Source: an uncultured Clostridia bacterium (GTDB lineage Bacteria > Bacillota > Clostridia > HGM11327). Taken from it: a stretch of DNA of 64,000 nt. Both the position numbers and the translations under genes were made by a program. The first letter of the stretch is position 1; each line of letters opens with the position of its first letter. Below are positions 54,576 through 54,921 of the stretch, piece by piece. Location of the stretch: NCBI GenBank assembly GCA_945918795.1, contig CAMEIT010000001.1:915-64914 (forward strand), in the 5' to 3' direction. A model generated the notes under the pieces. The model was not told where the DNA came from. It worked only from the letters and a program-made list of their open reading frames with translations, and did not search any database.

Positions 54576-54636
54576 TGTTAAAACTCCCTTTACTTTGGAA
54601 ATAAAAAAAGCACTTATTGCATTATCTCTAATGCAT

Positions 54637-54712
54637 AAGTGCAACTGGCTGGCTTGGTTACGGACCGAAGCCCCTTTAGCTTTGCGTCACAGTCTTTCGA
54701 CCGCTTTGCCTA
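54637..54712 (-). promoter_or_regulatory. Putative c-di-GMP-I (GEMM) riboswitch aptamer, distal copy, followed by terminator hairpin 54603-54642
   Basis: Minus strand GGCAAAGCGGTCGAAAGACTGTGACGCAAAGCTAAAGGGGCTTCGGTCCGTAACC...GTTGCAC resembles the Vc2 GEMM aptamer (GGCAAA..GAAAG..GACGCAAAGCC..GG). It is followed by gcacttat..ataagtgc and a T7 run. Confidence 0.55.
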
Positions 54713-54772
54713 TGTACAAATTTTCCGCATAAAAAAATGCACTCTGTACGTCGGAATCAAACCGATGTATAA

Positions 54773-54848
54773 AAGTGCAACTGGCTGGCTTGGTTATGAA
54801 CCGAAGCCCCTTTAGCTTTGCGTCACAGCCTTTCGACTGCTTTGCCGT
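54773..54848 (-). promoter_or_regulatory. Putative c-di-GMP-I (GEMM) riboswitch aptamer, proximal copy
   Basis: Near-identical 75-nt direct repeat of 54637-54712, differing at a few positions. Starts about 10 nt downstream of the predicted TSS. Confidence 0.55.
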
Positions 54849-54860
54849 ATTGACAAGATA

Positions 54861-54889
54861 ATTATAACTCTGTTTTTTTATTTTGTCAA
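54861..54889 (-). promoter_or_regulatory. Consensus sigma-A promoter of the riboswitch-sipW operon
   Basis: Minus-strand TTGACA, a 17-nt spacer, then TATAAT. Confidence 0.6.
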
Positions 54890-54921
54890 TAGGTTTTTTC
54901 CTAAAATTTTCTATTTTTTTA

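Follow-up and report, generated by a model that had tools for sequence, protein, structure and literature searches.

Two c-di-GMP-I riboswitches in series in the leader of a SipW/TasA-like operon from an uncultured Clostridia lineage

Class I riboswitches for cyclic di-guanosine monophosphate (c-di-GMP), also referred to as GEMM-I, account for more tandem arrangements than any other riboswitch class, with 347 doublets and 12 triplets described (Sherlock et al. 2022, PMC9481103). The c-di-GMP family is also among only three that are significantly enriched in contiguous arrangements (Microb Genom 2025, PMC12452182). In this report, a c-di-GMP-I doublet is presented from a 64,000-nucleotide (nt) stretch of DNA, the window, which belongs to contig CAMEIT010000001.1 of an uncultured Clostridia bacterium (assembly GCA_945918795.1); all positions are those of the window unless another contig is named. 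The doublet lies in the leader of an operon that opens with a gene for a SipW-type signal peptidase and continues with genes for TasA/camelysin-like proteins. A sequence-only reading of the same stretch had regarded tandem GEMM aptamers as rare, a view that the published counts contradict.

The doublets compiled by Sherlock et al. (2022, PMC9481103) are of the same architecture class as that of the window, and a steeper dose-response is predicted for both. Among characterized examples, the tandem Bc3-5 of Bacillus thuringiensis CT-43 is known from experiment to be an ON switch, with read-through that becomes more stringent, or digital, in tandem (Zhou et al. 2016, PMC4759541) and that follows the product equations of Welz and Breaker (PMC4759541). 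Its terminators overlap the ligand-binding C, the P1 stem and part of P3, with C245 being named in the model for Bc4 (PMC4759541). Like Bc3-5, the window doublet consists of complete GEMM-I units in series, each aptamer having its own intrinsic terminator, the 5' arm of which shares the ligand-binding C with the 3' end of the aptamer. In both systems the units are nearly identical within the genome and precede an operon for surface or adhesion proteins in a Gram-positive host. The repeat period is approximately 160 nt in Bc3-5, compared to 136 nt in the window and 161 nt in a sister lineage described below. Unlike Bc3-5, where three units precede five LPXTG-type surface proteins, the window has two units followed by a SipW-type peptidase and TasA-like subunits. 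The window doublet also has a shorter demonstrable terminator overlap, with no clear P1 and no overlap of P3, and belongs to an uncultured lineage of gut Clostridia.

Two single-unit switches, pilM and Cd1, provide a further comparison, as both combine a GEMM-I aptamer scaffold with terminator-based transcriptional control (Landgraf et al. 2022, PMC9262584). The platform of pilM is compact and of the ON type, like that of the window; however, pilM senses 3',3'-cyclic GMP-AMP (cGAMP) and forms a ligand-induced P1. Cd1 resembles the window units in having no stable P1 but is an OFF switch with a separate antiterminator that needs about 60 nt (PMC9262584). With respect to the genes being controlled, the nearest parallels are the sipW-tasA operon of B. 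subtilis and the sipW-bsaA operon of C. perfringens, in which the gene for a SipW-type peptidase also leads a TasA-family fibre operon. Both operons are under the control of protein regulators (SinR and AbrB in B. subtilis), and neither is known to be controlled by a riboswitch. A literature search, which did not extend to the supplementary list of PMC9481103, returned no publication that pairs a c-di-GMP riboswitch with sipW, and nothing relevant that links the published targets of c-di-GMP riboswitches to TasA or camelysin. The c-di-GMP-I doublet is of a known type, and the new point is that it precedes a SipW/TasA-like fibre operon in one gut Clostridia lineage.

The promoter, both aptamers and both terminators are found on the minus strand inside 54603-54903. 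In order of transcription, the leader comprises:

54861..54889, minus strand: sigma-70-type promoter, with TTGACA at 54889-54884, a 17-nt spacer and TATAAT at 54866-54861 (12/12 consensus matches)
54773..54856, minus strand: c-di-GMP-I aptamer 1 (RF01051, 63.7 bits, E = 3.9e-10, model positions 1-87 of 87)
54731..54779, minus strand: intrinsic terminator 1, a hairpin at 54779-54738 (-16.4 kcal/mol) and a run of seven U (U7) at 54737-54731
54637..54720, minus strand: c-di-GMP-I aptamer 2 (RF01051, 59.9 bits, E = 3.3e-09, model positions 1-87 of 87)
54603..54642, minus strand: intrinsic terminator 2, a hairpin at 54642-54610 with a minimum free energy (MFE) of -17.0 kcal/mol and U7 at 54609-54603
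54590-54584, minus strand: ribosome-binding site AAGGGAG, 3' of terminator 2 and ahead of the sipW ATG at 54575

When the whole window was scanned against the 4227 families of Rfam, three matches reached the gathering threshold, and two of them are the leader repeats. Both lie well above the RF01051 gathering score of 35, and the same scan gave no match at threshold for the class II c-di-GMP riboswitch in the window. Much of what had been proposed for the leader from its sequence is upheld: the consensus promoter, the c-di-GMP-I identity of both repeats, and a terminator after the second repeat just ahead of the sipW ribosome-binding site. The proposed repeats of 75 nt and about 93% identity are present as well, although they measure 74 nt with 95% identity between aptamers 1 and 2, and are spaced 136 nt start to start. 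Transcription probably begins near G54854.

The leader is well conserved among relatives. At least 21 metagenome contigs encode exactly this SipW protein, and the doublet leader, about 97% identical, is present on all ten that were fetched (10/10); contigs L106 and L107 contribute two further doublet leaders. Since the same leader, conserved at about 97%, is found on at least 12 independently assembled conspecific metagenome contigs, the doublet is not an assembly artefact. A sister lineage, represented by contigs L097 (GCA_964319085.1), L098, L099, L108 and L115, keeps both the gene order recF-nagB-leader-sipW and the layout of the leader, namely promoter, aptamer, terminator, aptamer and terminator. 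Its aptamers score 58.8-64.3 bits against the full RF01051 model, and TTGACT-17-TATAAT occupies the same place as the window promoter. Relative to the window, identity is 69% for its TasA-like protein and about 85% for RecF.

Comparison of the two lineages also supports the fold of the aptamers. All 20 modelled pairs of aptamer 1 are standard pairs (20/20), and the two adjacent hairpins that are a hallmark of GEMM-I are present, with GAAA as the loop of the first hairpin in all copies. Among six distinct copies drawn from both lineages, paired cells amount to 96.8%, and double-sided changes occur at four pairs, one in each of the four main helices. None of 500 shuffles reached the same covariation score (0/500), and all slid registers collapse to 13-42% paired.

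The nucleotides expected to contact the ligand are equally constant. The G directly 5' of GCAAA, at 54846 in aptamer 1 and 54710 in aptamer 2, is G in all eight copies examined from both lineages. The GACGCAAA adenine, which is the first A after GACGC, and the cytosine of the 3'-tail UGC, the presumed ligand-pairing C at 54777 and 54641, are likewise invariant in all copies of both lineages. We take these three positions to be the equivalents of G20, A47 and C92 in Vc2 numbering, a mapping that draws on Zhou's G11 mutants and the G/A selectivity position. In Bc3-5, the G that precedes GCAAA corresponds to G11, G171 and G331, and its mutation to A lowered the response (Zhou et al. 2016, PMC4759541); G versus A at this same position separates sensors of c-di-GMP from those of c-AMP-GMP (Sherlock et al. 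2022, PMC9481103). Because the contact nucleotides are invariant and the selectivity position is G, c-di-GMP is the favored ligand and cGAMP is disfavored.

In both lineages, each aptamer is followed by a hairpin of -16.4 to -30.8 kcal/mol and a run of seven or eight U, with substitutions that are compensating or improve pairing. As each aptamer has its own hairpin and U-run, the leader contains two complete riboswitches in series and not a pair of aptamers with a shared platform. The sequence-only reading had counted two aptamers and one terminator, overlooking terminator 1. The consensus terminator scanner, having narrow rules for loop and GC content, listed neither of the riboswitch terminators, and folding and conservation were used instead. 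The terminator 1 hairpin appears in the MFE structure of the whole leader as well as in that of the isolated segment, and its basal pairs take U54779, G54778 and C54777 of aptamer 1; the basal pairs of terminator 2 take G54642 and C54641 of aptamer 2. In a strain variant (L087/L088), an AC to GU change in the 3' arm of terminator 1 gives better pairing and -19.5 kcal/mol. The sister lineage has a different, longer hairpin at the same position (-30.8 kcal/mol, followed by U8), such that the terminator 1 unit is 50 nt in the window and 78 nt in the sister lineage while a strong hairpin and U-run are found in both. For terminator 2, the sister lineage replaces AUGCAUUA/UAAUGCA by GUACAUUAA/UUAAUGUAC. 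One of these changes is double-sided, from G-C to A-U, and the hairpin is kept at -16.7 kcal/mol with U7.

With these elements in place, the leader can probably be read as two independently acting c-di-GMP-I riboswitches in series that turn ON a surface-fibre operon of approximately 7.4 kb, and we hold this with good confidence. In unconstrained MFE structures, both terminators are fully formed. When folding is constrained to keep the aptamer helices and to leave the ligand-contacting G and C free, the two basal G-C pairs beside the U-run disappear from each terminator. At about 49 and 40 nt, the expression platforms are short and directly adjoin the aptamers without room for an antiterminator, and folding predicted no separate antiterminator for the ligand-free state. 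We infer an ON direction for both units because the ligand-free folds show full terminators, there is no antiterminator, and the platforms are compact (about 33-49 nt) like those of the ON-type switches pilM and Bc3-5.

In the proposed mechanism, each terminator hairpin would complete without c-di-GMP, and transcription would end at about 54731 or 54603. Once c-di-GMP is bound, the last aptamer nucleotides, U-G-C, would be held in the binding pocket, where the C would form a Watson-Crick pair with one guanine of the ligand. The U-G-C would then be unavailable for the basal G-C pairs of the terminator beside the U-run, leading to weaker termination and read-through. Basal pairs in this position matter for intrinsic termination. 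Polymerase would need to pass both switches, making the amount of full-length mRNA approximately the product of two read-through probabilities. By this product rule, the doublet would have a lower basal level (leak) and a steeper, more switch-like response to c-di-GMP, and high c-di-GMP would switch on the production of fibres or adhesins. From the repeats, a steeper or a two-threshold response had been suggested earlier. The steeper response is what would be expected from the arrangement, while two thresholds are unlikely because the two copies have identical ligand-contacting nucleotides and differ at only four peripheral positions.

Several observations weigh against an ON doublet of this kind. 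No convincing conserved P1 was found between the 5' and 3' flanks of the aptamers, either by hand or by duplex folding (-0.1 to -4.0 kcal/mol), and the 5' flanks vary between strains. The demonstrable overlap of aptamer and terminator is only 2-3 nt, and with the aptamer enforced at least 12 bp of each hairpin can still form in folding. As the overlap is this short and most of the hairpin coexists with the aptamer, the effect that the ligand is presumed to have on termination could be small. In addition, the GAAA-tetraloop receptor, CUAAG...UAUG in the Rfam consensus, is replaced by CUUCG...CAAG in every copy, and a motif scan found no GGDEF, EAL or HD-GYP gene in the 64-kb window.

Some of these points would suit the opposite polarity, in which c-di-GMP allows both terminators to form and the operon is expressed only when c-di-GMP is low. 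GEMM-I OFF switches exist, such as Cd1 of C. difficile (PMC9262584), and the coexistence of most of each terminator with an enforced aptamer is a feature of the Cd1 type, as is the lack of a stable P1. Nevertheless, an OFF switch needs a ligand-free antiterminator; none is predicted, and the ligand-free MFE structures show full terminators. The 5' arm of the terminator abuts the aptamer without a spacer, compared to a platform of about 60 nt in Cd1, and with OFF polarity the operon would be terminated in both states. Given also that Bc3-5, the closest characterized architecture, is ON and that high c-di-GMP is the usual direction for induction of adhesins or fibres, an OFF doublet is unlikely. 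A different ligand, either cGAMP sensed by a GEMM-Ib variant or another dinucleotide, is extremely unlikely. Covariance models barely distinguish GEMM-I from cGAMP aptamers, and the two were at first annotated together (PMC9481103, PMC9262584); yet the selectivity position is G in 8/8 copies across both lineages where cGAMP sensors have A (PMC9481103), and the known cGAMP riboswitches have been described in Gram-negative bacteria and not in Clostridia (PMC9262584).

The remaining alternatives concern the number of working units. Adjacent and nearly identical aptamers might form one cooperative sensor with a single expression platform, in the manner of glycine riboswitches, and the first hairpin, which the consensus terminator scanner did not flag, would then be a linker. 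This is very unlikely given that U7 (or, in the sister lineage, U8) comes directly after the hairpin between the aptamers, that this hairpin overlaps the 3' end of its aptamer just as terminator 2 does, and that both lineages have kept it although its sequence and length have changed completely (50 versus 78 nt). Tandems of c-di-GMP-I are moreover classed under 'multiple expression platforms' (PMC9481103), the layout of the window doublet being one termed "multiple expression platforms, pseudo-cooperative" (Sherlock et al. 2022, PMC9481103). There is a similarly small chance that one copy is a recent redundant or decaying duplication that leaves effectively one working switch. The 95% identity of the copies would fit such a history, and a single chimeric unit on contig L112 shows that one unit can be lost, but with a coverage of about 2x, L112 may have been collapsed in assembly. 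Both copies are full-length aptamers with intact terminators, and both have been kept, with position-specific platforms, in two lineages whose RecF proteins are about 85% identical. Two separate ON riboswitches remain the preferred reading.

How the two units have evolved can be gauged by comparing window 54637-54846 with L097:4098-4331. Aptamer copies are 95% and 92% identical within genomes, compared to 89% and 80% for positional orthologs between lineages. Both copies share at least six lineage-specific substitutions, and the terminators are position-specific. This pattern suggests that the aptamer cores undergo concerted evolution by gene conversion. The conspecific contig L112 (L112:760-970, ERZ780149 NODE-27542) carries a single riboswitch in which the body of aptamer 1 is fused to terminator 2. 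Its leader is shorter by exactly one 136-nt unit, and all other conspecific contigs have the doublet. The singlet is either a natural deletion by recombination between direct repeats or, at about 2x coverage, a collapse in assembly.

Downstream of the leader, the operon and its end are organized as follows:

54575..54042, minus strand: SipW-type signal peptidase I gene (ATG at 54575, 177 aa)
53977..53441, minus strand: TasA/camelysin-like protein 1 (178 aa; PF12389, 25.7 bits)
53386..52706, minus strand: TasA/camelysin-like protein 2 (226 aa; PF12389, 26.7 bits; TIGR04088, 28.4 bits)
52512..51901, minus strand: TasA/camelysin-like protein 3 (203 aa; TIGR04088, 22.3 bits)
51879..48817, minus strand: 1020-aa protein with Listeria-Bacteroides repeats (PF09479, 2.9e-15) and a SpaA-like C-terminal domain (weak PF17802 match)
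48820..48230, minus strand: 196-aa BsaA-like protein (weak TIGR04090 match)
48216..47578, minus strand: 212-aa protein with C-terminal DPVTG, hydrophobic stretch and RKKR, a sorting signal of the sortase type
47469..47518, minus strand: operon-end terminator, a perfect 16-bp inverted repeat (arms 47474-47489 and 47503-47518, 100%) followed by TTTTT

The proposal of a sipW/TasA-like operon at this place is supported by matches above cutoff to TIGR02228, PF12389 and TIGR04088. The peptidase scores 113.1 bits against TIGR02228, the archaeal-type signal peptidase I model (cutoff 51.85), and also matches PF10502. Against NF046067, the equivalog model for Bacillus SipW, it reaches 104.8 bits, which is below the cutoff of 190, and its best relatives among solved structures in the PDB are the eukaryotic SEC11A and SEC11C. 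By these scores, the peptidase is classified as SipW-like and of the archaeal/endoplasmic-reticulum type rather than as an ortholog of the Bacillus protein.

For the TasA-like proteins, the PF12389 matches exceed the gathering score of 22.5 and cover only the N-terminal 65-79 residues, and TIGR04088, with a cutoff of 19, is a model of the SipW-dependent signal peptide. Scores for the BsaA subfamily TIGR04090 are 29.9-42.4 bits, below the cutoff of 60. An AlphaFold model of TasA-like protein 1 (predicted local distance difference test score, pLDDT, 77.7) had no PDB match at E <= 0.001 in Foldseek, and a sequence search of solved structures with this protein gave nothing meaningful. Its top Foldseek matches, weak at a template modelling (TM) score of about 0.3, include donor-strand fibre subunits, the archaeal bundling pili 7ueg, cannulae, PsaA, CFA/I and the TasA fibre 8aur. 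A fibre function for the TasA-like proteins is likely. Across conspecific contigs, SipW is 100% identical and the lengths of the TasA-like proteins vary by strain (178/180, 213/226 and 194/203/205 aa; L081-L090, L106). The fibre subunits may be strain-variable, possibly under diversifying selection.

The sorting signal of the 212-aa protein scores 17.8 bits against TIGR03063 (srtB_target), just under the cutoff of 18.15. A gene for a class B-like sortase lies three genes upstream of the leader (57284-58414, minus strand), with 131.8 bits against TIGR03064 (cutoff 153.75) and 50 bits against the Pfam Sortase family. It would be unusual for a TasA-like fibre system to include a component anchored by a sortase.

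To see how general the association of riboswitch and operon is, 80 other species-representative sipW loci were surveyed, with SipW homologs of at most 57% identity; Rfam was applied to 20 of them, and a regular expression for the aptamer core and a covariance model of our own to all 80. No GEMM-I aptamer was found within 6 kb of sipW at any of these loci (0/80). The covariance model is considered sensitive enough because it recovered three unrelated environmental GEMM-I aptamers. The closest sipW operons had been expected to share the riboswitch, but none of those surveyed does. Similarly, three other groups of TasA-like operons, in which the first subunit is 65-70% identical, have no GEMM-I aptamer and instead have a divergent helix-turn-helix gene or a PAP2 gene upstream. 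A pattern scan of metagenomes returned only five loci; at three of them, an unrelated single aptamer precedes a gene for a small hypothetical secreted protein.

The gene neighborhood points the same way. In three congeners (RecF 72-77% identical), nagB is directly followed by mutS2, without a sipW operon at that site; outside the clade, RecF identity is at most 44%. Because the aptamer is absent from other sipW and TasA-like loci and the congeners lack the operon at this site, the riboswitch and operon together form an accessory insertion common to two sister lineages of a tight, uncultured Clostridia clade. On the other side of the leader, the congeners (L109-L111) have recF in the canonical origin-proximal cluster dnaA-dnaN-(dnaN)-yaaA-recF. 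In the window species (54922-58414), the sortase gene and a gene for a 693-aa protein without a family match precede yaaA-recF, and the gene order of the origin region has thus been rearranged.

Three other features of the window can be mentioned. A 14-nt inverted repeat, TATTGACAAAATAA ... TTATCTTGTCAATA, brackets the -10 box of the leader promoter (54848-54891; arms 93% complementary and 16 nt apart). The -35 hexamer lies in one arm and the beginning of the transcript in the other, and the repeat could be a candidate operator. However, the sister lineage does not conserve it, and strains differ in the downstream arm. Elsewhere, a single glycine riboswitch aptamer (30522-30621, minus strand; RF00504, 59.2 bits versus 32) is situated upstream of a gene of the sodium:alanine symporter family (30389..28866; PF01235, 442 bits) and looks like a singlet instead of the usual tandem. 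Lastly, between the operon terminator and a ZIP transporter gene there are two copies, 78 nt apart, of a 32-nt GC-rich repeat that contains a palindrome, GGCTTGCGGAGTGTGRGGCAGAGCCYCAC (47355-47464), with a 21-nt inverted repeat nearby (47126-47146 / 47316-47336). This region looks like a repetitive extragenic palindromic (REP)-like element or the remnant of a small mobile element.

For riboswitch biology, the locus contributes a gene association that is new and a clean case of tandem units that seem to evolve in concert, with no new principle. A broader interpretation can be offered tentatively: this may be the first case of c-di-GMP directly controlling TasA-type, SipW-processed fibres via RNA, with a hybrid fibre that has a sortase-anchored component and a large adhesin-like protein, encoded by an accessory island in one lineage, and with a riboswitch array that can be tuned by gene conversion and by a copy number of one or two units. 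If so, having one unit or two would change from strain to strain how switch-like the expression of the fibres is. The compact natural doublet, presumably a double ON switch, could also serve as a c-di-GMP reporter, as Bc3-5 does. The locus provides a concrete and testable link between c-di-GMP signalling and TasA-like fibres in an uncultured gut anaerobe.

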